From a bacterium (GTDB lineage: Bacteria; Patescibacteriota; Andersenbacteria; UBA10190): DNA of 64,000 nucleotides. This document shows positions 9,233 through 63,700 of this stretch, piece after piece. Made by a program: the position numbers and the translations under genes. Within the stretch, counting starts at the first letter, position 1. Every line of letters starts with the position of its first letter. Under the pieces are notes generated by a model. It did no database searches. It had not been told where the DNA came from and saw nothing but the letters and a program-made list of their open reading frames with translations. The stretch spans positions 8,404 through 72,403 of the forward strand of contig JAUYKA010000005.1 in assembly GCA_030698495.1 (NCBI GenBank), written 5' to 3'.

Positions 9233-10849
9233 CTACTCCAACATCCCCCCAAACCTCGGCGTCTCCGTTCCCGCCTCTATCTTCGCCCGCCGCGGCAAAT
9301 ATTTCCGTATCGCCGCCAGCTCGTCGCACCTAAACAACAAACACATAGCCACATACGCCGCCACCCCGCCGCCGAAAGATACTAACAGCTGCAGCAATAC
9401 CCCCCAAAACCTGGTCATATCCACCATCGCCGCCACCGGATATTTTAGCGCCTGCAAAACCATTCCGGCCAGTACCGCCGCTACCGTTATCCTCGCCAAA
9501 CTAAACAGCACCTCGCGATCATTAAAACCGTTCAACTGCCAATGCAGCACGCCCAACAGCATCACTAAATTCAAAATCGCCGCCACCGAAAAAGCCAGCG
9601 CCAGCCCCTGCACGCCCATTCGCGGCGCCAACCATATTGCCAGCGCCACATTTACCACAATACTGATTAAAGAAACCGTCACCGGAATAATCGTGTTTTG
9701 CCTCACATAAAACGCTCGCGTCAACAACGGCACCGTCGCTTGCGCAAACAAACTGATCAGCAGCAACCCCAGTGTTTCGAAGGTTAGAATAGTATCTTCC
9801 CAGTCAAAAGCGCCGTCGCCAAACAGCACCCGAATCAACTGCGCGCGCAGCAAAAAGAAAAAGACCGCCACCGGCACCACTAGAAACAAAATATACCGAA
9901 AGGTTTTTGTCAGTGTATTCCTGAATTCTTTTTCCTGTCCTCGCGCTACTTGCTCCGCCAAGGTGGGAAAAGCCGCTTGGGCAAACGCCAAGCCGAATAC
10001 CCCTATCGGCAGACTCTGCACATTACTGGCCAAATGAAAAACCGAAATGGTTCCCGCCGCCAGCCCGGAACCGATTATCGTAACTAAAAACAAATTCACC
10101 TGTGTTCCGGCCAAACCGAATATACGCGGAATTATCATTCGCCGCAGTTTTTTTACATCAACGGAAGACCACTCCATTATCAGCCGCCAGCGCCAGCCGA
10201 CCGCGATCGCGCTCGGCAATTGCACCAACATATGTAGTGCTGCGCCCAGCACCACACCCCACCCCAGTCCGGATACTCCCATCATCGGCACCAGCCAAAC
10301 CACGCCGATAATTATACCGACGTTATAAAGAATCGGCGCCATCGCGTAAGCCACAAAACGCTTAAACGAATTCAGCACCCCGGAGAAAATAAAACTGATA
10401 CTCAATAATATCGGCTGCAGCGCCATCACTCGGGAAAGCATTATCGTCATTGCCAACTTGCCGCCGCTAAAACCCGGCGTTATCAAAGGCACAATCTTAT
10501 CGGCCAACATCACATATAAAATACTGAATATTATTACCACAATCAGGACTAAGTGAAGAACGGACAAGGAAAAATCAAACGCCTCTCTCTTTTTTTTATC
10601 TTTGCTATGAACCAGTTTCTCTGTGAACAAAGGAATAAACGCGGCCGACAAAGCTCCTACTACAACCAAATTAAAAATCAGGTCTGGTAAACGAAACGCC
10701 GCCACAAAAGCGTCAAACGTATCACCCGCGCCAAAGGTCGTGGTAAAAACCCTTTCTCTGATTAAACCCATGAAACGCGAACCTAAAGAGGCCGCTCCTA
10801 AAATCAGGGCCGCCGACACTACTCGACTGCTTACACCGTTTCTGGCCAT
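9233..10849 (-). CDS. murJ: Lipid II flippase MurJ/MviN family
   Basis: 538-aa polytopic membrane protein with the MurJ N-terminal signature (FMGLIRERVFTTTFGAGDTFDAF). Confidence 0.8.
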   Translation of the reverse strand: MARNGVSSRVVSAALILGAASLGSRFMGLIRERVFTTTFGAGDTFDAFVAAFRLPDLIFNLVVVGALSAAFIPLFTEKLVHSKDKKKREAFDFSLSVLHLVLIVVIIFSILYVMLADKIVPLITPGFSGGKLAMTIMLSRVMALQPILLSISFIFSGVLNSFKRFVAYAMAPILYNVGIIIGVVWLVPMMGVSGLGWGVVLGAALHMLVQLPSAIAVGWRWRLIMEWSSVDVKKLRRMIIPRIFGLAGTQVNLFLVTIIGSGLAAGTISVFHLASNVQSLPIGVFGLAFAQAAFPTLAEQVARGQEKEFRNTLTKTFRYILFLVVPVAVFFFLLRAQLIRVLFGDGAFDWEDTILTFETLGLLLISLFAQATVPLLTRAFYVRQNTIIPVTVSLISIVVNVALAIWLAPRMGVQGLALAFSVAAILNLVMLLGVLHWQLNGFNDREVLFSLARITVAAVLAGMVLQALKYPVAAMVDMTRFWGVLLQLLVSFGGGVAAYVAMCLLFRCDELAAIRKYLPRRAKIEAGTETPRFGGMLE

Positions 10850-19837: not shown

Positions 19838-20350
19838 GAAGACAGGTGAATGGCCGCTCTTTGTTCAAAGTTCGAGGCAACCCCTTAGGGGTTTACCCTG
19901 AGCTTGTCGAAGGGAGGAAAGTCCGGACACCTTATTGATCTTTTTCAATAAACGGGTGGCAGATAACGTCTGCCCGGAGCAATCCGAGGGACCGATACAA
20001 AATGGATAGATAGACACACGTGTATATCTATTTAATCGGCCAAGAGTGCAACAGAAACATACCGCTTTCACCCGCCGAAGCTTTACGCGAAGGCGGGCTA
20101 GTCCACTTCTTGTGGAGAGTAAGGTTGAAATCGTGAGGCCCGCCTTCGCGCGGGATACCCCTCGCTTCGGCGAGGCAAAGTAAGAGCTCACGCGGCCGCG
20201 CGGCAACGCGCGGACGGGGCAAGCCCCACCCGGTGCAACCTCAAGCAATTCCGCCTTAAAACGGAATAGGTAGAGGGCAAGAGGCGTACGGCGACGTGCG
20301 TCCCAGATAGATGGCCATTCCAGACAGAATCCGGCTTACAGCCTGTCTTC
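19838..20350 (+). ncRNA. rnpB: RNase P RNA (bacterial type A-like), about 513 nt with insertions
   Basis: P4 strands GGAGGAAAGTCCGGACACC (5') and ACAGAATCCGGCTTAC (3'). P1 pairs GAAGACAGG with CCTGTCTTC. Conserved blocks AGTGCAACAGAAAC and GGTAAGGTTGAAA are present. The region has no ORF and is GC-rich. Confidence 0.8.
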
Positions 20351-20409
20351 AAAAAAACCGCCCAGATTTTTGTCTGAGCTGTTTTTTTATGCCAACCAAA
20401 TAGATAATT

Positions 20410-21952: not shown

Positions 21953-21982
21953 AAACGGCTCAACCGTACGGATGAGCCGTTT
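21953..21982 (-). terminator. Hairpin AAACGGCTCAACCGTACGGATGAGCCGTTT abutting the stop codon of the wHTH gene
   Basis: Same conserved stem as the hairpins at 25506-25535 and 63174-63208. Confidence 0.5.
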
Positions 21983-22354
21983 CTATATCACCTCGTACCG
22001 CACTCCCCGTCCGGTATTGCCTTCCTGTTTGAGCTTCCCCCGGAGTTCCAGCTCTTCCAAATATCTGGTGGCCGTAGCATCGGATACTCCCGTTGCCTTT
22101 TGCACCTCATCGTTACTCACGCCGCCGTGCTCGCGCGCGTACGCCATAACCTGCGCCAAAATATTTTCTTTGCGCTCCTGATCCTGCCGCACACTGTCCG
22201 CCAGCTCCGCCGGCACCGCTCCGCCACCACCGGAGCCCGAATCGTCCGCGCCACTACCAACCAAACCCAAACCGCGCCGCCTCAAAAACCAAGCACCCGC
22301 GCCCGCTACAATAAACCCAACTATAAATCCCCAAATAAATCCATTCATAAACAA
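21983..22354 (-). CDS. Membrane-anchored winged-helix DNA-binding protein (hypothetical regulator)
   Basis: N-terminal TM helix, Gly/Ser linker, C-terminal wHTH (VSNDEVQKATGVSDATATRYLEELE). Confidence 0.45.
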   Translation of the reverse strand: MFMNGFIWGFIVGFIVAGAGAWFLRRRGLGLVGSGADDSGSGGGGAVPAELADSVRQDQERKENILAQVMAYAREHGGVSNDEVQKATGVSDATATRYLEELELRGKLKQEGNTGRGVRYEVI

Positions 22355-22945: not shown

Positions 22946-23077
22946 AACTCAATATTAACACTAACTAAAAATCTCCCCAAATAAACCCGCTCATAAAGTC
23001 AGTTTAGCATAAATTCGTAAGTGAAAATAAAATTCTATACGCCAAATTATGACTATTCAAACATCGGGGGTGAATTT

Positions 23078-23854
23078 CTATTTAAACCTCTCAAAGTACT
23101 TGTCAATTTCTCCTCTTAACTCAATGCCAACTCTTTCAAAACAATCTAATAGGTTCTTATAAGCATTTTTACCACCTAGAAAATCCCAAAATTCATCAGC
23201 AACCTTAAGCTCATTGGGTAAATCCAACATTCCTCTCATGGTCCAACGATTATAAGCCTGCGGTTCATATGGATTATATGGAATAGCAATATAAGTATGT
23301 ATGGATGCCTTCGGTCTTTCTACTAATATTACAGCAACCCATTCTAGTAGTGTGCGCTTGAATTCCTTAAAACCACCTGCATTTGGTTTCGCTGTTTTTA
23401 TATCAAAAAGATAGTAGTCGTCATTACCAGATTCAACCATTAGGTCTACTCTCGTTGGTTTAACATCTACTATTTTACCTTTTTGGCAAACTTTTCTTAT
23501 ACGCTCAATTTCCTTTTGTTTATCGGGTGAAACACTCGCAGTAGTCAGCCCGTCGATAATTTTCTGGATTTCAGTTTGAGCTTCACTGCTTATCTGATGC
23601 CCCACAATCACTTGTGACTCAGCCTTTTTGAAGTTTTTTTGAGCCAAAGCTAAACCAACTGGTTCAAAAATACTTGTTCCGAAATTTGTATTTAATGAAT
23701 GAATAAAAGAGTATAGAGCTAATCTATCCTTACCAAGTAATCTAGTATGGAATGGCATAACCGCCGGCTCTGGTTTGTAGTTCTGAAACTTGTTTCTAAG
23801 ACTAGTCTTTAAAACCTCCTCGACTTCCTTAATTTGTTTATTTGATATAGACAT
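23078..23854 (-). CDS. Putative type II restriction endonuclease (TdeIII-like family, tentative)
   Basis: 258-aa protein whose start lies 1 nt from the stop of the DNA methyltransferase gene. Low-GC region. Family assignment is from memory of RE_TdeIII-like motifs, not from a search. Confidence 0.45.
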   Translation of the reverse strand: MSISNKQIKEVEEVLKTSLRNKFQNYKPEPAVMPFHTRLLGKDRLALYSFIHSLNTNFGTSIFEPVGLALAQKNFKKAESQVIVGHQISSEAQTEIQKIIDGLTTASVSPDKQKEIERIRKVCQKGKIVDVKPTRVDLMVESGNDDYYLFDIKTAKPNAGGFKEFKRTLLEWVAVILVERPKASIHTYIAIPYNPYEPQAYNRWTMRGMLDLPNELKVADEFWDFLGGKNAYKNLLDCFERVGIELRGEIDKYFERFK

Positions 23855-23855
23855 A

Positions 23856-25442
23856 CTAAATTTGCTTGAGATGAAAAATTATCTCTGAATATGGGTTTCT
23901 GTCACGCTCTGTTCTATTTAAAACCGGCCGCTTAAATCTATTAACTATTTCCATACCCGCTTTTTCTGCAATAGAAGGATATAAGTCATATTTATCATTT
24001 GCAACCAGGAAAACATTGCGGTCGTTTGCCAAATACTTTTTGCAGTTGTTTAAAACAAAAGCAATACCTTCAACGTATGACATTCTAGCTTCCGCACCTT
24101 GTCCTCTATATAAGGGGCCAATTTCATATTCGTCCCTGCGCTCAAAGCCAAACAAATCATAAGCATAGGCATGCTGCTCATGATAATCAATCTGACCAAC
24201 ATAAGGCGGCGAAGTAAAAATACCAGCAATTTTCTTCTTCTGCAAAATTCCATACAGTGTTTTATTTCTCTTTTTCACTTCCTTAAATATATCAACTTGT
24301 CTCGAATCTGCCGGAAGAATAGCATAGTGACTACCTGTTTTTAGATTGTCATATGTTTTGAGTCGATAGACAGTATCAGTTGCGTAACGATCAAACCAGG
24401 TTTTTATAGAAAACAATGGCTTACAAATTTTCTTATGCTTCCAACAATAATAAGTGGCCAGTTGCGGTTCTTTTAGTGTCGCTAAATCCGAGTGGGTCGT
24501 AGCACGACACGACCTAATGGTCCTGCTTAAAATCACTGCTAATATCTTTTTGTTTTTTATATCCGTTACTTTCTTAACCAAATCAAAAGCATAATCAATC
24601 TCTTTTCTAACTCCGTTAATATACCACCTATCAAGAAATGTATTTGTTCCTTTTTGCTTTAACTCAATACTATACTTCTTAATTTGACGCTTATAAACAC
24701 TCAAAAATTCTTTTTCTTTTTCCTCTGCATACTGTTTCTCATTAATCTGTCCCCTGTTTACCTTGTATTTATACTCAGGGCTTGGAAAATACTTATTATT
24801 AAATACAGCCAACTCATTTAGTAGCTCATTTTCAAAAGTGGACATCATACTATCATTTTCATATCCAGCTATTAAGGTTTTAATCTTATCAACATCCTTA
24901 TCTAAAAGGTTAAAATCATAATCCAGCAGCTTAGTCTCCGTAACCATACAGTTAAAGTGCGATATATCTACACCAATCGCATGAATACCCATTTCGTTAG
25001 CCTGAACTAATGCTGTTCCCGAACCGGAAAACGGGTCAAGAACCACGTCTCCTTTTTTAAAATAAACATCCTTTTTGAAATCATCAGTATGGCCATCTAA
25101 AAAATATTCAACCAACTGCGGAATAAACTTACCTTTGTACGGATGAAGTCGATGAACATGTTTAGTCGTGTCTTTTTCACGAAGATGATCAAAAGACAAT
25201 GACCAATTCAAATCGTTGCCCAAACGTTTTTTATACACTAACTCCCGCTTCCCACGAAATGATTTATAGTAGCGCTCAAGATCAGTAACGCTGACATATA
25301 CACCACTTTCGTTAACCCTTTTCTTTACTTTTCCGTACTGAATTAAGTAAGAAATATTAGACTCGCTTATATCTCTTTCTAAAAAATCACTAGCCCATCG
25401 ACTAGCTTCCATAAGAGTTAATAATTTCGTGTTGCCATTCAT
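23856..25442 (-). CDS. DNA methyltransferase (alpha-class amino-MTase; SPPY motif suggests N4-cytosine or N6-adenine)
   Basis: Motif I DPFSGSGT and motif IV TSPPY, separated by about 290 aa (alpha-class order). Confidence 0.8.
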   Translation of the reverse strand: MNGNTKLLTLMEASRWASDFLERDISESNISYLIQYGKVKKRVNESGVYVSVTDLERYYKSFRGKRELVYKKRLGNDLNWSLSFDHLREKDTTKHVHRLHPYKGKFIPQLVEYFLDGHTDDFKKDVYFKKGDVVLDPFSGSGTALVQANEMGIHAIGVDISHFNCMVTETKLLDYDFNLLDKDVDKIKTLIAGYENDSMMSTFENELLNELAVFNNKYFPSPEYKYKVNRGQINEKQYAEEKEKEFLSVYKRQIKKYSIELKQKGTNTFLDRWYINGVRKEIDYAFDLVKKVTDIKNKKILAVILSRTIRSCRATTHSDLATLKEPQLATYYCWKHKKICKPLFSIKTWFDRYATDTVYRLKTYDNLKTGSHYAILPADSRQVDIFKEVKKRNKTLYGILQKKKIAGIFTSPPYVGQIDYHEQHAYAYDLFGFERRDEYEIGPLYRGQGAEARMSYVEGIAFVLNNCKKYLANDRNVFLVANDKYDLYPSIAEKAGMEIVNRFKRPVLNRTERDRNPYSEIIFHLKQI

Positions 25443-25505
25443 GATGTCTTTCCTAATATATCATTCCCCATACAAAAATCAAAAACCCCGTCCCCAGCCA
25501 ACAAT

Positions 25506-25535
25506 AAACGGCTCAAGCGGACGCTTGAGCCGTTT
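25506..25535 (-). terminator. Hairpin AAACGGCTCAAGCGGACGCTTGAGCCGTTT downstream of Fic
   Basis: 10-bp GC stem plus flanking A/T runs; conserved-stem family (see findings). Confidence 0.5.
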
Positions 25536-25544
25536 ATTATAAGT

Positions 25545-26435
25545 CTATTGTTTGTAACTAAACCCTTCCCCTATCTTCCACACACCCTTCTCCCGAAAAG
25601 CGGGAATAGACTGCCGCCGCGCCGCATTAGTTATCGCCGACGCCGAAAGATTATTTTTCTTAATATATTCAGACAAACTGACAATGTTCTCTCCTTTTAA
25701 ATAAGTCACCCGTTTGTACAGGGATTCAATCAACATCAAAGCTAATATCTTTTCCATTGTTTTGGTATTCTTTTTCTCCCGATAGTCATCAAACGCCCGA
25801 TAATAATTGGTTTTCTCTTTATTGCGTACAATTAGACGGGGAAATCCCAATCGCAAGAGTTGAAAATTAACTATAACCCGCCCAATGCGTCCGTTACCAT
25901 CATTAAACGGGTGAATACTTTCAAAATCCAAATGCCACTTGGCGATTTTATCTAAGAAATACTTATCCAATTCACTGGAGTACTCCAACATAATTTCATC
26001 TATCAAACGCTCCACGTGCTCCGGCGGAGGCGCTACATGAGTTCCTACCCGAACATATTCACCTGCCTTGCGCCAACGCCCGGCAATTGCATCATCAATT
26101 CCACCTATCAGCATCTTGTGCAAAAGCAAAATCAATTCTTTGGAAACCTCTTCTGTTATCGCCTTGCCTCGCTTGTAATCAACAACCTGAGCCAAATTTT
26201 TTGCCTCGAAAACCTCCCGCAACGATACGTCCCGTGCCAACTCCTGTTCCAGCAAAATCTTCTCCGTTTCTTTCAAAGTGAGAGTTGAATTTTCTATCGC
26301 ATTTGAGTTATAGACACTTTCAGGAATTTCCGCTTCATCAATCATGCTTAAGAGCGACTCTTTACCCTTTTTTAAGGCATCAAAATCAGCCTTTAGCGTC
26401 TTAATTTGCTCCCTAAATTGTTTGGTTGTTGCCAT
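25545..26435 (-). CDS. Fic/Doc family protein (AMPylase)
   Basis: Canonical Fic motif HPFNDGNGRIGR. Confidence 0.85.
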   Translation of the reverse strand: MATTKQFREQIKTLKADFDALKKGKESLLSMIDEAEIPESVYNSNAIENSTLTLKETEKILLEQELARDVSLREVFEAKNLAQVVDYKRGKAITEEVSKELILLLHKMLIGGIDDAIAGRWRKAGEYVRVGTHVAPPPEHVERLIDEIMLEYSSELDKYFLDKIAKWHLDFESIHPFNDGNGRIGRVIVNFQLLRLGFPRLIVRNKEKTNYYRAFDDYREKKNTKTMEKILALMLIESLYKRVTYLKGENIVSLSEYIKKNNLSASAITNAARRQSIPAFREKGVWKIGEGFSYKQ

Positions 26436-26564
26436 AATTACATTATATCAAATTCACGCGTTTTTGTCAAAACCACGTGAATTGCACCCAATAACAGCCC
26501 TTCATTCACGCGTTTTTCTACAAATTCCCCCCCTGTCCACACTCGGTGTGGACAGGGAAATCAT

Positions 26565-27275
26565 CTATTTCCTCATCAGCCCATTTTCCCGAAAGCTGAA
26601 CAGTTGCGTTTTGCTGACTACCACATGATCTAGTAATCCTATTCCCATCAATTTTCCCGCTTCAGTTATTTGTTTTGTCACCGCCAAATCCGCTTCGCTC
26701 GGATTGGGATCGCCGGAAGGATGATTGTGGCAAACAGCGATGCTGGCGGCGTGCCGTCTTATTGCCGCGTCAAATGTTTCGCGCGGATGCACTAAATTAG
26801 CGTTAAGCGTCCCGACACCAATCAAGTCCACCCCTAACACCCGGTTACGATTATCAAACGAGGCTACGAAAAAATGTTCTTTCTGCCAGTCGCCAATAAA
26901 TGGTTTTACCAGCCGGGCGATGTCCTCCGGTGCCGCCACCGCTTTTGACTTATTTCTCTTTACCTCACTATCAGTTTCCTCCCGCACCACCCGCCGGGCA
27001 ATTTCCAGACATGCTTTTAATTGCAGTGCTTTCGCCTGCCCCAATCCCGGCACTTTCTGTAACTCCTCAACTGAAGCCGATACTACACCTGCCAACGATC
27101 CAAAACAACTCAACAAATTCTGCGCTATCTGCATTACCGATAACCCCGCCGTCCCGCGACCAAGCACGACGGCAATCAACTCCTGTGCCGAAACACTGCC
27201 AGCGCCGTATTTTACCAAACGCTCCCGCGGCCTCTCCTCCACAGGCATGTCCCGCACCGTGAAATTTTGCTTCAT
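26565..27275 (-). CDS. radC: RadC-like JAB/MPN domain protein
   Basis: HNHPSGDPNPSEAD JAMM motif; N-terminal HhH; start MKQNFTVRDMPVEERPRERL (ATG at 27273-27275). Confidence 0.8.
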   Translation of the reverse strand: MKQNFTVRDMPVEERPRERLVKYGAGSVSAQELIAVVLGRGTAGLSVMQIAQNLLSCFGSLAGVVSASVEELQKVPGLGQAKALQLKACLEIARRVVREETDSEVKRNKSKAVAAPEDIARLVKPFIGDWQKEHFFVASFDNRNRVLGVDLIGVGTLNANLVHPRETFDAAIRRHAASIAVCHNHPSGDPNPSEADLAVTKQITEAGKLMGIGLLDHVVVSKTQLFSFRENGLMRK

Positions 27276-27319
27276 GATTTTATCTACTGAATTTCCCCGC
27301 CCTAAGCCGCCATGATTAA

Positions 27320-27610
27320 TTAGTAAATATTTACCCCCCCACCAAGAACAAAGAGTACCCATACCACCAGAAGAAATCCAACCCAGGCTACACTACCATA
27401 CAAAGCAAATAGATTTATCAAAAAAAATCTACTGGGCTTTTCCAAGTTATTAAGTCGTATTAAATAAAAAAACTCTAATAAAGCAACAGCCACTGGAATA
27501 ATAAACGCAAATATTAAATCATTCTCATTAAAAAAAACAAGGATCGTTAGTGCAACACTAACCACAGCTAAAATTACCGCGACTGCTAAATGTATTTTTA
27601 TCATTCTCAT
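27320..27610 (-). CDS. Hypothetical small membrane protein
   Basis: 96 aa with three hydrophobic helices. Confidence 0.35.
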   Translation of the reverse strand: MRMIKIHLAVAVILAVVSVALTILVFFNENDLIFAFIIPVAVALLEFFYLIRLNNLEKPSRFFLINLFALYGSVAWVGFLLVVWVLFVLGGGVNIY

Positions 27611-27763
27611 AAAACTCTTTATATTTTACAACGTTTCTCTAATTGCGGCTATCATTTCCCGTAACGGTAACGCTTTCTCCTGATCAACCCTACCCCCGCG
27701 TATTGACCCGGCAAAATATATATACATATTTTTATTCTATCCCACCCATACAAAAAACAATAA

Positions 27764-27782
27764 ATCCAACACCCGATGTTAA
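27764..27782 (+). repeat. Direct repeat ATCCAACACCCGATGTTAA, copy 1
   Basis: Identical 19-mer at 29022-29040; extended similarity of about 30 bp. Confidence 0.7.
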
Positions 27783-27879
27783 TATTACACCGTAACACTA
27801 CTGTGCATTAACCACACTAGCCGTTTGGGTATCGTGTTTTTAGTGCTATGATTAAAGAAATTATCATTAATTTTATTCT

Positions 27880-28986
27880 ATGGAAAATATGGGGATGGAC
27901 AATCAAATAAATGAACAGCAGGAAGGTCAGTTTAATAACCAGCAAGCGGGTCAGCCTACTGAAGTTATTAACGAAATAAAGCCTAGAAAAAATTATACAT
28001 TGGCTATTGTTCTATTGGTTCTTGTTATATTTATAATGGTTTTTGCGGGAGGAGTTTTCGCTTATCTGTATTTTTCTTCCAAGACTAATAATATTGTGGC
28101 TGATGTGCCGATGGATACGAGCGCGCCCGTAGAATCTGCTACGCCAAGTCCCTCTGGTGAGTTGTCTGTAGTGTTTACACCTCCATATCCGGTTGTGTTT
28201 TCGGAAAGGGACAATACGCCAAACTTTGGCGGCGCGGGAAAATTTTCCCTAACTGGAGTTACGATAGGTGATTATGAGGTTACGGAAAGTAATAAGATGT
28301 CTTTCTGGGACGGATTTAAATACACATACGACGTGGGGCAGAAAATTAATTCCGTTGCATTAGAATTTAAAATTAACGTCACTGAGGGAGGCCAGCTTCC
28401 TCAAAGTATTAGAATGATTTCCGTGGATGAAGCGGGGGGTGAAGACAGGACACCACCGATAAACAGAGATTATTTGTATGATGGCCATAAGCCGATGAAT
28501 GATTTTGCGACGACTGACTCTACTGTCGAGAATGCACAGGTTGTTTTTGCAGTGCCGGAAGGCGCGACTTCATTTATGTTTACGAGCGGGGGAAGTTCAG
28601 AAATTAAGTTTAGTGTGGCCGTAAACAACGGACAGATATCAGTTAACCAGGCAAATCTTGGTGAAACCAGTACATTCACGAAATATATGACTGGAAATAT
28701 TGGGATTGATGTGGTTGAAGTGATGATTAATAGAGAAGGAGGAGTGCTGGCAGGAAATTTTGTGTCGGATAAAAAAGTCGGGATTATAAAGGGGACAGTG
28801 GATAGTGCCGGAAATTATTTTATGCAGTTAACGTTTCTAGAAGATAATCAGGAGTACGGAGTAATGACGGGCGCTCTTACGCTAGTGGATGATATAACTG
28901 GTAATTGGCGGGCGGCGGGTTCACTTGAGGATGTTCCGTTCACTTTGACCAAGGCGCAAATACGAATACCAGCCTTTGCTCAGTAG
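27880..28986 (+). CDS. Hypothetical membrane-anchored extracellular protein (the only substantial plus-strand CDS apart from rpmB)
   Basis: Q/N-rich N-terminus, single TM helix (LAIVLLVLVIFIMVFAGGVFAYLYF), and a 300-aa beta-rich ectodomain. Confidence 0.6.
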   Translation: MENMGMDNQINEQQEGQFNNQQAGQPTEVINEIKPRKNYTLAIVLLVLVIFIMVFAGGVFAYLYFSSKTNNIVADVPMDTSAPVESATPSPSGELSVVFTPPYPVVFSERDNTPNFGGAGKFSLTGVTIGDYEVTESNKMSFWDGFKYTYDVGQKINSVALEFKINVTEGGQLPQSIRMISVDEAGGEDRTPPINRDYLYDGHKPMNDFATTDSTVENAQVVFAVPEGATSFMFTSGGSSEIKFSVAVNNGQISVNQANLGETSTFTKYMTGNIGIDVVEVMINREGGVLAGNFVSDKKVGIIKGTVDSAGNYFMQLTFLEDNQEYGVMTGALTLVDDITGNWRAAGSLEDVPFTLTKAQIRIPAFAQ

Positions 28987-29021
28987 AAGAGATAAAAAAA
29001 TTTGTAAGGAAAAATAAGCCA

Positions 29022-29040
29022 ATCCAACACCCGATGTTAA
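29022..29040 (+). repeat. Direct repeat ATCCAACACCCGATGTTAA, copy 2
   Basis: See copy 1. Confidence 0.7.
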
Positions 29041-29176
29041 CATCGCAAATCGCGTGAATTTTAGTGAAAAACGGGTCTCATTCACGCGTTTTTCCTGATT
29101 TTTCCTACTTCACATACTCCACTGAACCACCCTTAATCTTCTTGTTTTTCAAGCAATCAACTGCCATAGGCACCAT

Positions 29177-29533
29177 CTATGACAAACCTTCAATACCACC
29201 GTCCGGCAAATCATCCGCCTCAAACCACTCTATTTCTTCATCCGTAGTAGTAGAAAAGTCGTTGGTATCCCCTTTATAAACAATGGCGTATAAATCTACC
29301 CGCCAACCTTTTGCTTTTAGCTTCCCGAAATATTTCCAGTCTTTCTTTTTGGTTTTCACGCCGGCTTCTTCTTTTACCTCCCTGACAATACAGTCACTGC
29401 TTTCCTCACCGCGCTCAATCCTGCCACCAATTCCATTCAGCTTGCCCGCTTGCCAGTCTGGCCTATTTTTATGCATCAATAAAACCTTTAAAAGATCATG
29501 GCTAAAAATAAAACCGAGAGTATAAGCTTTCAT
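29177..29533 (-). CDS. NUDIX hydrolase
   Basis: Nudix box GIGGRIERGEESSDCIVREVKEEAGV. Confidence 0.75.
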   Translation of the reverse strand: MKAYTLGFIFSHDLLKVLLMHKNRPDWQAGKLNGIGGRIERGEESSDCIVREVKEEAGVKTKKKDWKYFGKLKAKGWRVDLYAIVYKGDTNDFSTTTDEEIEWFEADDLPDGGIEGLS

Positions 29534-29653
29534 ACTCTAACTATATCAGAACCTGACACTCCTATCTGATCCGATCCAGTGCCTCGTTCACCATTTTGTC
29601 CGCTATCTTGTTTTTCTCCCTGGCCACACGATATGGTTTATTTCCGGAGTTAG

Positions 29654-29947
29654 TTATTCCTTAAACTTGAATGAGCGCTTGTTAGCTTCTTGCAGGATTT
29701 TTAATGTTGCCTGCACAGACAAATTGTCGCTTGGTAACAGCACCAGACGGTCGCCTAATTCATCGGCAAGAGGACTTAAAAATTCATCAGTCCACGACGG
29801 CGACAGGGTCAGCACCCCGGAAAAATCTATTTCCAAAACATCATCCCGTGGTAAATCACGTAAGGTAGTCCGAAACGCTTTAAGGGCCTCACTTCCCAAC
29901 TCCCGGGTAATTAAAGTGGTTCCGAATTTTTCCAACATCAATTTCAT
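29654..29947 (-). CDS. STAS-like domain protein (DUF4325-like; anti-sigma-factor-antagonist fold)
   Basis: 97 aa; secondary-structure pattern and size are consistent with the STAS/DUF4325 family (assignment from memory). Sits immediately downstream of a GHKL ATPase. Confidence 0.45.
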   Translation of the reverse strand: MKLMLEKFGTTLITRELGSEALKAFRTTLRDLPRDDVLEIDFSGVLTLSPSWTDEFLSPLADELGDRLVLLPSDNLSVQATLKILQEANKRSFKFKE

Positions 29948-29970
29948 AAATTTATATATTATCTTATTGC

Positions 29971-30690
29971 TTAAAAATCAATCTTGGCCAAACACCCGTT
30001 TATCGTATTTACTCCCCTAACAACTTTAAAGTCTTTATTGTCATTCTGTAGACGCACTTCAGCATCTCCGCTGGTAAAAAACAGATTAATCGGATTACCG
30101 ACTACAACTTCCCGAACCAATTTCAAACCGTTGCCTCGTTTCTCCGGCGCCCGGCCGGAAATAAATTCAGTAAAAGCCACTTTTACCGCGGCAACATGGT
30201 TAGACAACTCCGGACGAACTTGACGCAATGTCCTTAGAATACCAAGTCCTCTGTCAGCTAATACAATTACCCCCTTCTTAATATCATACCCAAAAAATAT
30301 TCCGGGCACATCCGGCCATTTGCCTAAATTATGAGCAAATGAATTATCACCTATTTCACCGGCAATCAAGACAATAAGTGAATATAACTCTTCAAATCCA
30401 GGCTTGGCCATAAGTTCACGCTCCATTTTTACCAGCCTTGCTTGAAAGACAGCACTTGTCTGACAATAGAATCTCTCCGGAAATTCAGTTTTGTCACCAG
30501 CCCATTCGAAAGCGAATTTTAAAAGATCACTCGCGAAAATTTCGAGATCTTTCTCTCGATAATATCTGTGTGTTCCGCCTTCCTTTTTAATGGCAACCAA
30601 TTTTCCTCTTTCATCCCACCGGCGCAGGGTATCAATTGAAACACCAAGTATTTCAGCCGCTTGACTGATTGTTAACAGTTTTCTTTCCAT
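29971..30690 (-). CDS. MerR-type HTH fused to a GHKL (histidine-kinase-like / anti-sigma-factor-kinase-like) ATPase domain
   Basis: N-terminal LTISQAAEILGVSIDTLRRWDERGKL (MerR HTH). N-box GEIGDNSFAHN, G1 box DRGLGI and G2 box GNGLKLVRE. Confidence 0.6.
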   Translation of the reverse strand: MERKLLTISQAAEILGVSIDTLRRWDERGKLVAIKKEGGTHRYYREKDLEIFASDLLKFAFEWAGDKTEFPERFYCQTSAVFQARLVKMERELMAKPGFEELYSLIVLIAGEIGDNSFAHNLGKWPDVPGIFFGYDIKKGVIVLADRGLGILRTLRQVRPELSNHVAAVKVAFTEFISGRAPEKRGNGLKLVREVVVGNPINLFFTSGDAEVRLQNDNKDFKVVRGVNTINGCLAKIDF

Positions 30691-30832
30691 ATCTACACTA
30701 TAACATACCCTATAAATCTATGCAATTATTACATAAAACTATGCATTATTACTATAATCTATGCATTTTATTGATATTTATGGGCAAATTTCATACTTTC
30801 AGCTCATAAATTCACGCGTTTTTCCTGATTTT

Positions 30833-31237
30833 CTATTTCTCCCGATCCAGCGCTTCATTCACTAGCCTATCAGCTATCTTATTTTTATCCCGCGTCACGT
30901 GCGTAAAAGAAGTTGTCTCAAACTTATCCGCTAGTTCCTTCGCCTCAACAAATAACTGTTTTAATCCGTTATTTTTCACCCGATAATTTCCTTTCAACTG
31001 CTCCACCACCAACTGGCTGTCCAGAAAACATTTTATCTCGGACACCCCCGCCTCCAGCGCCATAGCTAATCCTTTTATCAACGCTTTATATTCCGCCTGA
31101 TTGTTTGTCGTCTCGCCGATATACTCGCCGTACTCCAGCGCCTGTTCCCCTTCCACCCTAAGCACTAAACCGATTCCCGCCGGCCCCGGGTTCCCTCTGG
31201 CTCCTCCATCGGTAAATAAAGTGGCTTTTTTTGACAT
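30833..31237 (-). CDS. rnhA: Ribonuclease HI
   Basis: TDGGARGNPG, NNQAEY and DSQLVV catalytic DEDD motifs. Confidence 0.8.
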   Translation of the reverse strand: MSKKATLFTDGGARGNPGPAGIGLVLRVEGEQALEYGEYIGETTNNQAEYKALIKGLAMALEAGVSEIKCFLDSQLVVEQLKGNYRVKNNGLKQLFVEAKELADKFETTSFTHVTRDKNKIADRLVNEALDREK

Positions 31238-31240
31238 ATT

Positions 31241-32941
31241 TTATTTTTGAAATGTTATTTTCATCTCGCCCGCTCGCGCCGCGTCCCGGACGTTAAACTG
31301 CAGCCTTCTTCTGCCTTGCCATTGATTTTCGGTTAATTCTCCCAATATATCAATAGATCCTTTGGTAATTTTAGCCGCGGCCATCTCGTGTGCCAATCCG
31401 AAACCGATGCCGTCAACTAATTCGTTGTTTATAACCAGCCCCAACTTGGCGTGATCCGAATTTTTTCCCACCGCCCGCCACTCGTGTAGCTGTATGTTTT
31501 GTGCCACCAGTTGCGGCCTTTTATTCCCCTCCCCGAACGGCGCGAACTCTTCTATCACCCGCACCGTCTGTTTATCTAAAATTTCCGGCGCCACCAGTGC
31601 TTCCGCTTCCAAAGTCAGCAGTCGTTCCCGCTCTTCAATAACTGCCCCGGCTTCCATCCCCCGCATCGCCTCGGTGAACATCGGCAGATTACTCACGTCT
31701 ATCGTCAACCCCGCCGCCTGACTGTGCCCGCCCAGTTTTACCAGCATACTTTGTGCCTGCCGCAGTATTTCCAGCACATTTGTTCCTTCCGGGCTGCGCG
31801 CCGAACCTACTCCGCCCCGCCCGAAGACCACCGCCGGTTTGCCATATTTATCCGCCAGACGATTAGCCGCCAAACCAACCACGCCGGGCGGCCAGTCTTC
31901 TCCGCTGGCTACAATTACCGCGCCGCATCCCGCCAGTTGTTTTTCCGCTTCCCGCACTACCTTCTGTGTAACCGTCTGCCGCCTTCTGTTTAACAGATTC
32001 AACTCGGCCACCAGCTTGTCCGCTTTGGCTTCGTCTTTTGTCATTAACAGCTCCAGCGCCGGCTGGGCGTGATCCATTCGGCCGGCCGCGTTCAGCATCG
32101 GTACTATTTTAAACACCACGTCCTCCGTCGATACTTCCTTGCCGGCCAACCCGACAAAATCAATCAGTTTCCGCAGGCCCACGCGCTTGGTCCGCCGTAA
32201 AACATCCAAACCGAAACGTACAATTGCCCGATTTTCTCCCAGCACCGGCACCGAATCGCCCAGAGTTCCCAACATCGCCAAATCCAACAGCCACTTTACT
32301 CTATCGGTGTCTCCTCTCCAAACCGAGCGATTATCATTAGACAAAGCCTGCGCCACTTTCCACGCCGTGCCGGCGCCGCATAAATAAGGCCAAGAGTAGC
32401 TGCCAACCGGATAATTGGGATGGATAATAGCAACCGCCGCCGGCTTCACCCTCCCCGGCGTATGATGATCGACTATAACCGTGTCTATTTTCTGGCGCTT
32501 CAGCCACTTAACTTCTTCCGCCGCGGTAACGCCGCAGTCAACCGTAACCAGCAGCGACATCTCCGGCGCCAGCCTTTCCAGCACTTCTTTATTAAGTCCG
32601 TATCCGTCATCTATCCGGTGCGGAATATATGGACTTACCCGCGCGCCGTGCTCGCGCAAAGTTTCCACTAAAATAGCCGTACTACTGATGCCGTCGGCGT
32701 CATAATCGCCGTAAACTATGATCTGCTCCTTATCCTTTATGGCCCGAAAAATTCTGTCCACGCCCGCGGCCATATCGGGGAAATTTCCCGGATCATGAAT
32801 ATCGTCTTTATACGAGGAACGAAAAAAACCGGCCGCCCCATCGGCGCCGACTCCCCGACGCACTAGCAAAAATCCCCTTAATTCTTCCGTCGAACTGATC
32901 GCGCCGCGCGCGTCTGCCGTCACTACCCACTGTCTATTCAT
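31241..32941 (-). CDS. recJ: Single-stranded-DNA-specific exonuclease RecJ
   Basis: DHH motifs (YGDYDADGISS, DHH) and DHHA1 domain; 566 aa. Confidence 0.85.
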   Translation of the reverse strand: MNRQWVVTADARGAISSTEELRGFLLVRRGVGADGAAGFFRSSYKDDIHDPGNFPDMAAGVDRIFRAIKDKEQIIVYGDYDADGISSTAILVETLREHGARVSPYIPHRIDDGYGLNKEVLERLAPEMSLLVTVDCGVTAAEEVKWLKRQKIDTVIVDHHTPGRVKPAAVAIIHPNYPVGSYSWPYLCGAGTAWKVAQALSNDNRSVWRGDTDRVKWLLDLAMLGTLGDSVPVLGENRAIVRFGLDVLRRTKRVGLRKLIDFVGLAGKEVSTEDVVFKIVPMLNAAGRMDHAQPALELLMTKDEAKADKLVAELNLLNRRRQTVTQKVVREAEKQLAGCGAVIVASGEDWPPGVVGLAANRLADKYGKPAVVFGRGGVGSARSPEGTNVLEILRQAQSMLVKLGGHSQAAGLTIDVSNLPMFTEAMRGMEAGAVIEERERLLTLEAEALVAPEILDKQTVRVIEEFAPFGEGNKRPQLVAQNIQLHEWRAVGKNSDHAKLGLVINNELVDGIGFGLAHEMAAAKITKGSIDILGELTENQWQGRRRLQFNVRDAARAGEMKITFQK

Positions 32942-32947
32942 GCCGTG

Positions 32948-33376
32948 CTATTGAATTCTCGGACCCTTCGTGTGCCGGTTGATAACATTTTTTTCCGTCC
33001 GGGTATGCCTGATAAACTTATGCAGCAAATCCACGATGCCCGCGTACTGGGTGATAATACTGGACAAATCGCGCTGCACCTCTTCTTTCTGCTGGAGCAC
33101 GTATGCCAACCTCAACCAATAATCCGTTTCAATCGCTTTCATCCTCGCCTCCGTCAAATGTCTATCAAAATCACCCGGCTCCTCCGCCGCGTTCGCCCGC
33201 ACCAAGTGGGTGCCCACTGCCATAGCCGTTTTCACCATTTCCTGCTTCACTATCACCCCGCCCGCGTCATCCTCCAAAGAATCCGCCAGCGTCACCACAT
33301 CCTGAATAACCTGAAAAATCCGGTCCCACAATTCCGCCTGCCGATGCTCCCAAATTGAAGAATGCGAATCTTCCAT
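32948..33376 (-). CDS. Four-helix-bundle protein (23S rRNA intervening-sequence protein family)
   Basis: 142-aa all-alpha protein resembling the TIGR02436-type family (from memory). Confidence 0.45.
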   Translation of the reverse strand: MEDSHSSIWEHRQAELWDRIFQVIQDVVTLADSLEDDAGGVIVKQEMVKTAMAVGTHLVRANAAEEPGDFDRHLTEARMKAIETDYWLRLAYVLQQKEEVQRDLSSIITQYAGIVDLLHKFIRHTRTEKNVINRHTKGPRIQ

Positions 33377-33446
33377 ACTTAGTATATGTCAATTATAGAA
33401 CATATTCTGTTTCTGAACCAGTACACCACCCATGCGGCTAATTTAT

Positions 33447-34775
33447 CTAAACATCATCTTTAATATTAACCCCGCCTGTATCCGGCTGATGGTATTCCAA
33501 AAAAGCCTGAAAAGGCTTGGCCAGCTTCGCCTGTGTCTCCTCCTCGATCCGTAACAGCCGGTTATACTTCGCTGTTCTCTCTGATCGTGTCGGCGCGCCC
33601 GTCTTGATTTGTCCTGCTCCGGTAGCTACCGCCAAATCGGCGATAAAAGTATCCTCCGTCTCGCCGGAGCGATGCGAAATAATAACATTTTGCTTGGCCT
33701 CTTGCGCCATCAATATCGCCTGCAGAGTTTCCGAAACGGTACCCACCTGGTTAAGCTTAATCAGCACCGCATTGGCCGCTCCGCGCACAATGCCCTCGCG
33801 TATTCTTGTGCTGTTAGTCACGTACAAATCATCGCCCACAATCTGTAACGCCTGCCCGTTGCGCTTGGTAAAATTCACCCAGTCATCCCAACTATCTTCA
33901 TCAAAAGGATCTTCGATAGAAATAAGTGGATAGCGTTCTCTCCATGTTTTATACAAATAAGCCAAGTCACCCGGCGGCATATCCTTACCGTCCATCTTAT
34001 AAACCTTGTTTTCGTGATCATAAAATTCGTTGGCCGCCGCGTCTATCCCCAGAAAAGCATCCACCCCCGGCTTATAGCCGGCCGTTTCAATTGCCCTGTT
34101 TAAAAACGTAAATACCAGCTCACTTTGCCCCAGCTTCGGCGCGAAGCCCCCCTCGTCAGCCACTTCCACCTGCCAGCCTTCTTTCTTTAAAATATCGCGC
34201 AAAGCATAGTGAATTTCCGCGCCCATGCGCAAAGCCTCGCTAAAACTGGCCGTCCCTACCGGCAGAACATGAAATTCCTGTATCGCCAGCTGATTACTCG
34301 CGTGCACTCCGCCATTTATCAAATTCATTTGCGGTACTGGCAGCCTTGCTTCTCGCTCCGGAAAAAGCTGCTGCAGATACATATACAGCGGCAAACCTTG
34401 TGCCGCCGCCTCCGCTCGGACACACGCCATCGATACCGCCAGTATCGCGTTGGCTCCCAGTCTCGATTTATTCGGTGTGCCATCCAACTCCAGCAATGTC
34501 CGATCAATTTTTGATTGATTGGCTGTATCTTTTCCGTGTAAAGCCGCGTTAATCTCGCCTCTAATATTCTTAACCGCTCCCAGTATGCCCTTTCCCCGAT
34601 AACGCTTCTCATCGCCGTCACGTAGCTCGTGCGCTTCGTGCTTTCCCGTGGAAGCGCCCGAGGGCACCATCGCGCTCACGCTAATACCGCCGGCCGCGTC
34701 CACCTGCGCCTCCACCGTCGGATTTCCCCGGGAATCCAAAATCTCCCTCGCAATTATCTTCTCAATCTTGGCCAT
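33447..34775 (-). CDS. eno: Enolase
   Basis: N-terminal IIAREILDSRGNPTVEA; enolase signature SHRSGETED. Confidence 0.95.
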   Translation of the reverse strand: MAKIEKIIAREILDSRGNPTVEAQVDAAGGISVSAMVPSGASTGKHEAHELRDGDEKRYRGKGILGAVKNIRGEINAALHGKDTANQSKIDRTLLELDGTPNKSRLGANAILAVSMACVRAEAAAQGLPLYMYLQQLFPEREARLPVPQMNLINGGVHASNQLAIQEFHVLPVGTASFSEALRMGAEIHYALRDILKKEGWQVEVADEGGFAPKLGQSELVFTFLNRAIETAGYKPGVDAFLGIDAAANEFYDHENKVYKMDGKDMPPGDLAYLYKTWRERYPLISIEDPFDEDSWDDWVNFTKRNGQALQIVGDDLYVTNSTRIREGIVRGAANAVLIKLNQVGTVSETLQAILMAQEAKQNVIISHRSGETEDTFIADLAVATGAGQIKTGAPTRSERTAKYNRLLRIEEETQAKLAKPFQAFLEYHQPDTGGVNIKDDV

Positions 34776-63173: not shown

Positions 63174-63208
63174 AAAACGGCTCAGGCGTGCGCTTGAGCC
63201 GTTTTTTC
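63174..63208 (+). terminator. Terminator hairpin AAAAACGGCTCAGGCGTGCGCTTGAGCCGTTTTTT after rpmB
   Basis: GC stem GGCTCA/TGAGCC plus T6; bidirectional (A5 upstream). Confidence 0.65.
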
Positions 63209-63700
63209 GTTCTCTATAAAGAGCTCCGTTTTCACCATCCACAACGAGCCGTATGAACGGCGGCTTTGTAGTAGCCCCACCTCACCAATGCCTTCACCCG
63301 ACAGGCGCGCTGGAAAACCAGACACCATAAAGTGAAGTCTCTCACCTTCTTCACCGCACGGCGCATCCGCTTCAACTCCCACTCTGACCGCTCCACCGGA
63401 CCAACCCTGTATGCTCTTTCTTTCATCGCCAACCCCTTCCCTGAAAAAGAACAAGAAACCGTTTCTGTCGCAATTACTGAACGAAGCTCGAACCTTTTTT
63501 GAACAAAACTCTGACTGATTGCCGCGCTTCGCGCGGCAGAAACTGAACGCTCCGCCTGCGTTGAAACTTCGGCGGACAAGTCGGGCGGGCAAAAAGGAAG
63601 GGGGTTGGGGGGGAAGGAATTTTTGCCCGCCCTCGCTTTCCGATTCCGATTTTTCCGCCGCCGCTGAATTTCGTGCCAGTGAAACTGGCGCGCCGCACCA

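Follow-up and report, generated by a model that had tools for sequence, protein, structure and literature searches.

The 64-kb stretch of DNA considered here (the window) comes from a metagenome-assembled genome of Candidatus Andersenbacteria (Patescibacteria, the candidate phyla radiation), and the element in question is a short motif built on the hexamer GTGAAT that recurs in a low-GC island of the window and stands in three copies over the promoter of a fic gene. Nearly all genes of the window lie on the minus strand, with a strong GC skew, and from about 23000 to 31000 the GC content is 0.35-0.43 against about 0.5. Read in the direction of the genes, the order begins with recJ, rnhA, motif copy d, a gene for a MerR-type helix-turn-helix (HTH) protein with a GHKL domain (merR-GHKL), a STAS-like gene, an rnhA fragment, a NUDIX gene and motif copies c and c'. 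It continues with a gene for a 368-residue protein in the opposite orientation, a 96-residue membrane protein, RadC, motif copies b, a' and a, and fic. The last part holds a type II methyltransferase, a TdeIII-like restriction endonuclease, a PsbP-like protein, a 123-residue winged-HTH protein, proS and the RNase P RNA.

The motif core, ATTCACGCG, has five matches in the window where 0.91 are expected, and none of 100 shuffles gave five or more. On the plus strand it starts at 26452, 26504, 29080 and 30810, and its reverse form, CGCGTGAAT, lies at 29051-29059 on the same strand. A first-pass annotation of this DNA had described the motif as confined to the island, and within the window this holds: the 15-mer GAAAAACGCGTGAAT, with up to two mismatches allowed, finds six sites, all in 26452-30824, and none elsewhere in the 64 kb. 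The same annotation had placed the copies in front of fic at 26451-26464 and 26513-26526; they lie at 26452-26465 and 26504-26517, and CACGTGAAT is present at 26474-26482, as it had been given. The gap from 29059 to 29080, reported as 21 nucleotides (nt), is 20 nt. An identical copy abutting the rnhA stop codon was correctly seen, ATTCACGCGTTTTTCCTGATTTT occurring at both 29080-29102 and 30810-30832, and the 21-mer form has two exact matches in the window. Pairs of the form GTGAAT-N18-23-ATTCAC occur twice (26477-26509 and 29054-29085), where 0.017 would be expected. An assembly artefact can be discounted, since two sequencing runs gave Logan contigs with 100% identity to the window (SRR13727534 over 19.9 kb, SRR26726065 over 7.1 kb). 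In viral contigs the exact 20-mer ATCAGGAAAAACGCGTGAAT gave no match, the paired pattern likewise gave none, and a 17-mer gave four, which by a rough estimate is about the chance level.

Three of the copies, together with the fic gene and its promoter, are laid out as follows.

25545-26435, minus strand: fic, 296 residues (Pfam Fic, E = 1.4e-20), with an N-terminal inhibitory SNAIEN and the catalytic HPFNDGNGRIGR.
About 25566-25688, within fic: predicted C-terminal beta-alpha-alpha-beta-beta winged-helix domain (residues ~250-290), the proposed operator-binding module.
26442-26470, minus strand: fic promoter, TTGACA-17-TATAAT, agreeing with the sigma-70 consensus at 12 of 12 positions in a promoter scan, with TG before the -10 box.
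26452-26466, minus strand: putative operator site 3 (copy a), reading CAAAAACGCGTGAAT, within the promoter's 17-nt -35/-10 spacer.
26468-26482, plus strand: putative operator site 2 (copy a'), inverted, reading CAAAACCACGTGAAT on the plus strand.
26504-26518, minus strand: putative operator site 1 (copy b), reading GAAAAACGCGTGAAT, with its hexamer at 26504-26509, 21 nt upstream of site 2.

On the gene strand the sequence upstream of fic is GAAAAACGCGTGAAT-N21-ATTCACGTGGTTTTGACAAAAACGCGTGAATTTGATATAATGTAATT-ATG, and the array reads GTGAAT-N21-ATTCAC-N6-TTGACA-N7-GTGAAT-N4-TATAAT-N6-ATG (sites 26504, 26477 and 26452). Site 2, which is ATTCAC in this direction (26482-26477), is followed after 6 nt by the -35 box, and site 3 is 16 nt from the ATG. 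A long-spacer inverted repeat thus lies over the -35/-10 region of fic's own promoter, as expected of an autorepressor like CccR, a Fic protein of Yersinia pseudotuberculosis. The -10 box is only 6 nt before the ATG, and the mRNA is therefore probably leaderless. Boxes of this kind (TATAAT or TATAGT) stand exactly 6 nt before the ATG of fic (26436-26447), merR-GHKL (30691-30702) and NUDIX (29534-29545), none of which has a Shine-Dalgarno sequence, and the island genes appear to have leaderless transcripts. We also observed that one Logan contig (L003, from SRR26726065), which covers 26497-33600 of the window, ends at 26497, in the spacer of operator sites 1 and 2; this end may reflect strain heterogeneity or a repeat-induced break.

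The fic family is very large, highly conserved and widely transferred. A protein search at E <= 1e-20 gave at least 8000 homologues, the top 120 being 70-76% identical to the window protein; they come from Patescibacteria, Nitrospirota and other lineages (named hosts include Portnoybacteria, Falkowbacteria, Nitrospira and Nitrospinae), and restriction-modification genes are usually adjacent. A metagenome scan with an alignment of 29 Fic sequences yielded 80 further loci, and the same array stands upstream of fic homologues (63-76% identity) at about 80 metagenome loci from many lineages. The Portnoybacteria homologue (76% amino acid identity), for example, has GTGAAT-N20-ATTCAC-N6-TTGACA-N7-GTGAAT-N4-TATAGAAT before its ATG, and a 73% homologue has AGTGAAT-N21-ATTCACT followed by TTGACA. 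The consensus of 72 non-redundant promoters anchored on the -35 box is aaaa....gtgAat-N20-ATTCAC-N6-TTGACA-N7-GTgAAT-N4-TAtAaT; an equivalent of site 1 is found in most of the promoters, and the site 2 position holds ATTCAC in 56 of the 72 and ATTAAC in 10.

Shuffle statistics on 76 non-redundant upstream regions set this pattern well apart from chance. An inverted pair of hexamers at N19-22 is present in 72 of the 76 regions against 13.4 in shuffles, and a perfect X-N20/21-rc(X)-N19-X arrangement in 39 against 0.16. Spacing is tightly kept, with 19 nt between sites 2 and 3 at all 34 scored loci, 20 nt at 28 loci and 21 nt at 6 between sites 1 and 2, and 16 nt between site 3 and the ATG at 18 of the 34; some fic loci have a fourth or fifth phased site. 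The hexamer itself changes jointly at all three sites of a locus, being GTGAAT at most loci, GTTAAT at about ten and GTGAAA at a few, as expected if a single specific protein reads all of them. The one gene that every array-bearing locus shares is fic, and tblastn found no homologue of the MerR-GHKL or STAS-like protein in 88 fic loci. As to whether the motif travels with the island genes in other genomes, which the first-pass annotation had suggested examining, it does so with fic and not with NUDIX, whose homologue loci (L011-L013 and L108) have neither the motif nor an rnhA neighbour. As a separate observation, RadC directly adjoins the fic-family gene in 7 of 88 loci of other organisms, on either side (downstream of fic in L026, L029, L030, L048, L050 and L058; upstream in L103 and in the window), an observation that suggests either repeated use of one insertion site or a functional connection.

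In order to ask which protein these sites might serve, we considered the Fic protein itself. Both Fic motifs, the catalytic HPFx[D/E]GN[G/K]R and the inhibitory helix [S/T]xxxE[G/N], are present and are invariant in the 29-sequence alignment, and a fold search gave matches dominated by the Fic core. In an AlphaFold2 (AF2) model the C-terminus (...SLSEYIKKNNLSASAITNAARRQSIPAFREKGVWKIG...) forms a strand (251-253), two helices (254-260 and 265-273) and two further strands (279-282 and 285-289) with predicted local distance difference test scores of 87-95; helix 265-273 occupies the recognition position, and the NAARRQ...IPAFREKGVWKI segment is nearly invariant in the alignment. The residue just before the invariant NAARRQ lies in this helix and is T269 in the window Fic, making it a candidate specificity residue. 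Each of the 10 ATTAAC loci has L or I here; ATTCAC loci have T, S or F and, in a few cases, A, L or I. When a tree was computed with the HTH region left out, the GTTAAT loci were split between at least two distinct places. Hexamer class therefore seems to track the predicted recognition-helix residue, pointing to the C-terminal domain of Fic as the likely binder of the sites. Some observations temper this assignment. No Pfam HTH family was found in the isolated C-terminal 66 residues, which leaves the AF2 model and a sequence resemblance to excisionase-type HTH domains as the basis of the domain assignment; the correlation between residue and hexamer is imperfect, and the loci are phylogenetically related. 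Because L occurs also with GTGAAT and Pfam misses the domain, we grade the identity of the binder as likely and not more.

With good though not full confidence, we regard the motif as the extended half-site (A-tract-CGC-GTGAAT) of an operator belonging to the fic family, a horizontally spread group of Fic proteins predicted to carry their own C-terminal winged-helix DNA-binding domain. The three half-sites of the window, alternating in orientation and 21 and 19 nt apart, would be spaced by about 2.5 helical turns from centre to centre. Fic, probably as a dimer or higher oligomer, would bind this array and block RNA polymerase, and the potentially toxic adenosine monophosphate (AMP)-transferase would thereby be held at a low, self-limited level. 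We infer both the binding and the repression from the arrangement of the sites and its conservation with fic.

The remaining copies lie away from fic, on the rnhA side of the island, among the following features.

29045-29094, no strand: orphan operator-type palindrome c'/c, CGCGTGAAT-N20-ATTCACGCG at 29051-29088, flanked by A and T tracts.
29080-29102, minus strand: first copy of a 23-nt direct repeat, AAAATCAGGAAAAACGCGTGAAT, starting 2 nt after the original NUDIX stop codon (29105-29107).
29105-29533, minus strand: NUDIX gene, originally an open reading frame of 142 residues, with an in-frame TGA at 29177-29179 (probably a W to stop change).
29562-29650, minus strand: rnhA', a remnant of the 3' end of another, diverged rnhA; 66 nt of it are 73% identical to 30833-30898, and it encodes a C-terminus that ends in REKNKIADKMVNEALDRIR and a stop codon.
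30810-30832, minus strand: second copy of the 23-nt repeat (site d), a lone half-site abutting the rnhA stop codon (30833-35).

The c'/c palindrome sits between the convergent 368-residue gene and the NUDIX pseudogene, with no promoter nearby for it to control. Its 20-nt gap is the canonical spacing of sites 1 and 2, and by eye its spacer agrees with the weak consensus, c..ttt.T, of spacers across the family; for these reasons, and given how few such pairs chance would supply, it is read as a homologous copy of the operator's upstream half. No fic remnant was found near it. A weak tblastn hit at 63335-63670 (E = 0.47), considered as a second fic pseudogene, was rejected, as it falls in a region without a convincing gene. 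That region, about 470 nt at ~63230-63700, has no convincing open reading frame and no Rfam match, ends at a terminator-like hairpin and could be an unannotated RNA.

Site d (half-site 30810-30824) has no partner half-site and is about 120 nt upstream of the merR-GHKL start, and the identity of c and d over 23 nt stops precisely at the inner edge of the hexamer. Between them the two 23-mers enclose a 1.7-kb segment with merR-GHKL, the STAS-like gene, the foreign rnhA fragment and NUDIX. The annotated 118-residue NUDIX is a truncated pseudogene, since homologues of 141 residues cover 99-100% of the repaired 142-residue sequence. The rnhA' fragment, which is 5'-truncated and placed between the STAS-like gene and NUDIX, indicates that foreign DNA from a related lineage recombined here.

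Comparison with relatives shows where this happened. In three of them, with rnhA 65-68% identical, the glycolysis-recJ-rnhA block is kept, a convergent RNase P RNA gene comes directly after rnhA (L005, L007 and L010, about 10420-10830 in each), and both island and motif are absent; this marks the stretch downstream of rnhA as a hotspot of insertion. The corresponding gene in the window lies ~10.5 kb from rnhA, with the island and proS between them.

19838-20354: RNase P RNA, the only Rfam match in the window, unusually long at 517 nt against a model of 367 positions.

No tRNA genes were found in the window. A RecJ search of genome contigs gave only one distant relative (43% identity), exact-protein look-ups of rnhA and MerR-GHKL returned the same strain only, and no MerR-GHKL relative was found in viral contigs.

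Based on this, the orphan copies may be recombination scars, that is, displaced duplicates of the upstream part of the operator, a reading that we hold to be evenly poised between right and wrong. Foreign DNA would have recombined into the hotspot downstream of rnhA with the motif serving as short homology. One possible route is a circular rnhA'-NUDIX-motif-merR-STAS fragment entering by a single crossover within the 23-nt sequence, the resident target being an rnhA-motif-N20-motif' locus. Such a model fits the gene order, the truncated rnhA, the 100% identical 23-mers beside rnhA ends of 73% identity, and the fact that only c has a partner. Several points speak against it. The 9 nt 5' of the half-site (AAAATCAGG) are common to c and d, for which duplication is the only explanation; no donor genome with an rnhA-NUDIX-motif-merR order was found, and comparing the rnhA' C-terminus with 120 rnhA homologues identified no donor. 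Moreover, a search of +/-2.5 kb around other fic genes, 341 kb in all, gave one extra pair; orphan operators are not a family feature, and their origin and role in the window are accordingly conjecture.

Short imperfect direct repeats stand on both sides of other island modules as well, which suggests that short-homology recombination built the island repeatedly. The island downstream of rnhA is thus a mosaic, with short repeats reused at its joints. A 20-nt exact direct repeat (27763-27782 and 29021-29040, extending to 34 nt at 82% as 27752-27785 and 29010-29043) flanks the 368-residue gene, and its second copy holds a perfect 14-nt palindrome, CGATGTTAACATCG (29032-29045), adjoining site c'. 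The 5' end of the 123-residue winged-HTH gene is duplicated across the PsbP-like gene (22319-22351 and 22963-22997, 83-88% identity), as if the latter had been inserted with a flanking duplication.

A different role for the orphan copies would be that of functional secondary Fic sites, acting as roadblocks, insulators or looping points, with Fic controlling read-through from recJ-rnhA or the neighbouring island genes. The c/c' pair, with 9+9 perfect positions, is a better palindrome than the pair of sites 1 and 2 in the promoter, CccR acts on genes beyond its own, and some fic homologues have the fourth or fifth phased site mentioned above. Even so, we think this unlikely: c/c' is placed between convergent 3' ends with no promoter near it, copy d is a single half-site, extra palindromes are nearly absent near other fic genes, and the adjoining NUDIX is already a pseudogene. 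It seems improbable, too, that the C-terminal domain of Fic and the half-sites do more than autoregulate and that the sites serve as preferred crossover or architectural points that capture modules downstream of rnhA, the orphan sites being working parts of an island-building or insulating system.

The first-pass annotation had also raised the possibility that the motif marks the conserved ends of a mobile module; it might then be an att site or terminal repeat of a cassette on whose 23-nt sequence a site-specific recombinase acts. The identical 23-nt direct repeats do flank a 1.7-kb insert, probably as a recombination joint, several other modules have flanking short direct repeats, the island sits at a synteny break after rnhA, and the C-terminal domain of Fic resembles an excisionase-type HTH by eye (with no Pfam match). 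However, none of ten island proteins has an integrase, transposase or recombinase domain, and at the other modules the flanking repeats have unrelated sequences, 73-88% identical, a poor fit with a single site-specific system. Neither the viral contigs, searched with the exact 20-mer, nor the NUDIX homologue loci hold the motif; no recurring motif-bounded unit was seen, and the conserved promoter array that accompanies fic already explains the half-sites. Beyond the joint itself, little of this proposal survives, and we would place a low probability on it.

It is more doubtful still that the palindromic copies are bidirectional intrinsic terminators or repetitive extragenic palindromic (REP)-like hairpins, with the lone copies as decayed halves. 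The position of c'/c between convergent genes would suit a terminator, its plus strand giving a 9-bp stem and then TTTTTCCTGATTTTT, and the b/a' and a'/a pairs can also fold; but a U-run follows only on the plus strand after site c, the loops are 20-21 nt long, a terminator scan called none of the motif sites, folding z-scores are modest (-2.35 and -2.42) and site a lies within a promoter spacer. What homologues conserve is the identity of the hexamer and its phasing along the DNA, and the spacers vary freely without compensatory pairing. Another sequence, AACGGCTCA-N10-TGAGCCGTT, forms the genome's own terminator-like hairpin. It occurs three times against 0 expected (21954-21981, 25507-25534 and 63176-63203), at gene ends inside and outside the island, and is probably a bidirectional terminator or REP-like element.

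Least credible is the regulator that the first-pass annotation had favoured for its operator sites, the MerR-HTH-GHKL protein, which with its STAS-like partner would co-regulate the island genes: its gene does lie within the island, 120 nt downstream of copy d, and has a MerR/HTH_17-type N-terminal domain, but the three-site array recurs at ~80 fic loci that have no MerR-GHKL or STAS homologue, the 17-nt spacer of the fic promoter is shorter than in MerR-activated promoters, where 19-20 nt is usual, copy d is one half-site on its own, well upstream of the merR-GHKL promoter, and that promoter has repeats of its own. The idea of operators thus stands, since the array travels with fic, and the motif is reassigned from the MerR-GHKL protein to Fic. 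The merR-GHKL repeats are three direct copies of CTATGCA (TGCATAG on the gene strand) at 30718-30765, 21 and 20 nt apart, immediately upstream of and overlapping the predicted leaderless promoter, and they are more likely than the GTGAAT motif to be the operator of the MerR-GHKL protein. The N-terminal 57 residues of this protein (gene at 29971-30690) match PADLOC mad1, a component of the MADS defence system (E = 2.4e-14), and with its partner, a weak STAS-like/DUF4325 protein, it resembles a partner-switching module. Sigma-H, extracytoplasmic function sigma factor and sigma-54 promoters, integron attC sites and an IS200/IS605 hairpin were considered for the motif and rejected because of a poor fit in spacing or core sequence and the absence of a cognate gene.

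The preferred reading, autoregulation by Fic, can be set against systems already described. PDB entry 7xux, which we take from its protein length and release date to be most likely CccR, matches residues 71-199 of the window Fic (E = 1.1e-10). In CccR of Y. pseudotuberculosis a Fic domain is combined with an inhibitory helix at the N-terminus and an HTH domain at the C-terminus; the protein negatively autoregulates by binding AGATAATCAT-N26-ATGATAATCT near the -35/-10 boxes, as established by footprinting, electrophoretic mobility shift and reporter assays, and also affects genes besides its own (PMC9755527). Like CccR, the window Fic combines a fused HTH domain (here predicted) with long-spacer inverted repeats over the -35/-10 boxes of the gene's own promoter, and a site within the promoter spacer, as near the boxes of CccR, should exclude RNA polymerase. 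Unlike the one 10-N26-10 palindrome of CccR, the putative operator of the window consists of three alternating hexamers (elsewhere up to four or five) with gaps of 20/21 and 19 nt. The two proteins also differ in sequence and in their DNA-binding fold, the window domain being a short beta-alpha-alpha-beta-beta unit, and share the Fic core only.

A second comparison is with SoFic and PDC-S04, which are single-gene Fic defence candidates (PADLOC; Millman et al. 2022, preprint 10.1101/2022.05.11.491447). The window Fic matches both PADLOC models (PDC-S04, E = 1.9e-37; SoFic, E = 8.5e-28) through the Fic core only, residues 41-231, and like them it lies in a defence-type neighbourhood, directly upstream of the type II methyltransferase and endonuclease pair; in L018 and L024 the fic homologue is upstream of type I or IIG restriction-modification genes. 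For the SoFic and PDC-S04 families no operator or autoregulation is reported in the papers searched. The array also recalls the operators of type II toxin-antitoxin systems, which are under conditional autoregulation by an HTH antitoxin: in both, expression of a toxic gene is kept down through repeated palindromic sites that overlap its promoter, as predicted here. In contrast to those systems there is no separate antitoxin gene, the predicted DNA-binding module being fused to the toxin-like enzyme, whose activity is presumably restrained by its own inhibitory helix. If this is correct, an AMP-transferase would be self-limited without an antitoxin, and the rigidly phased three-site operator together with T269 provides a directly testable model. 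An autoregulated Fic-HTH protein is already known, with CccR as the single experimental precedent; the arrangement described here would extend this principle to a much larger and unrelated-looking group, in which the conserved three-site architecture is the distinctive feature.

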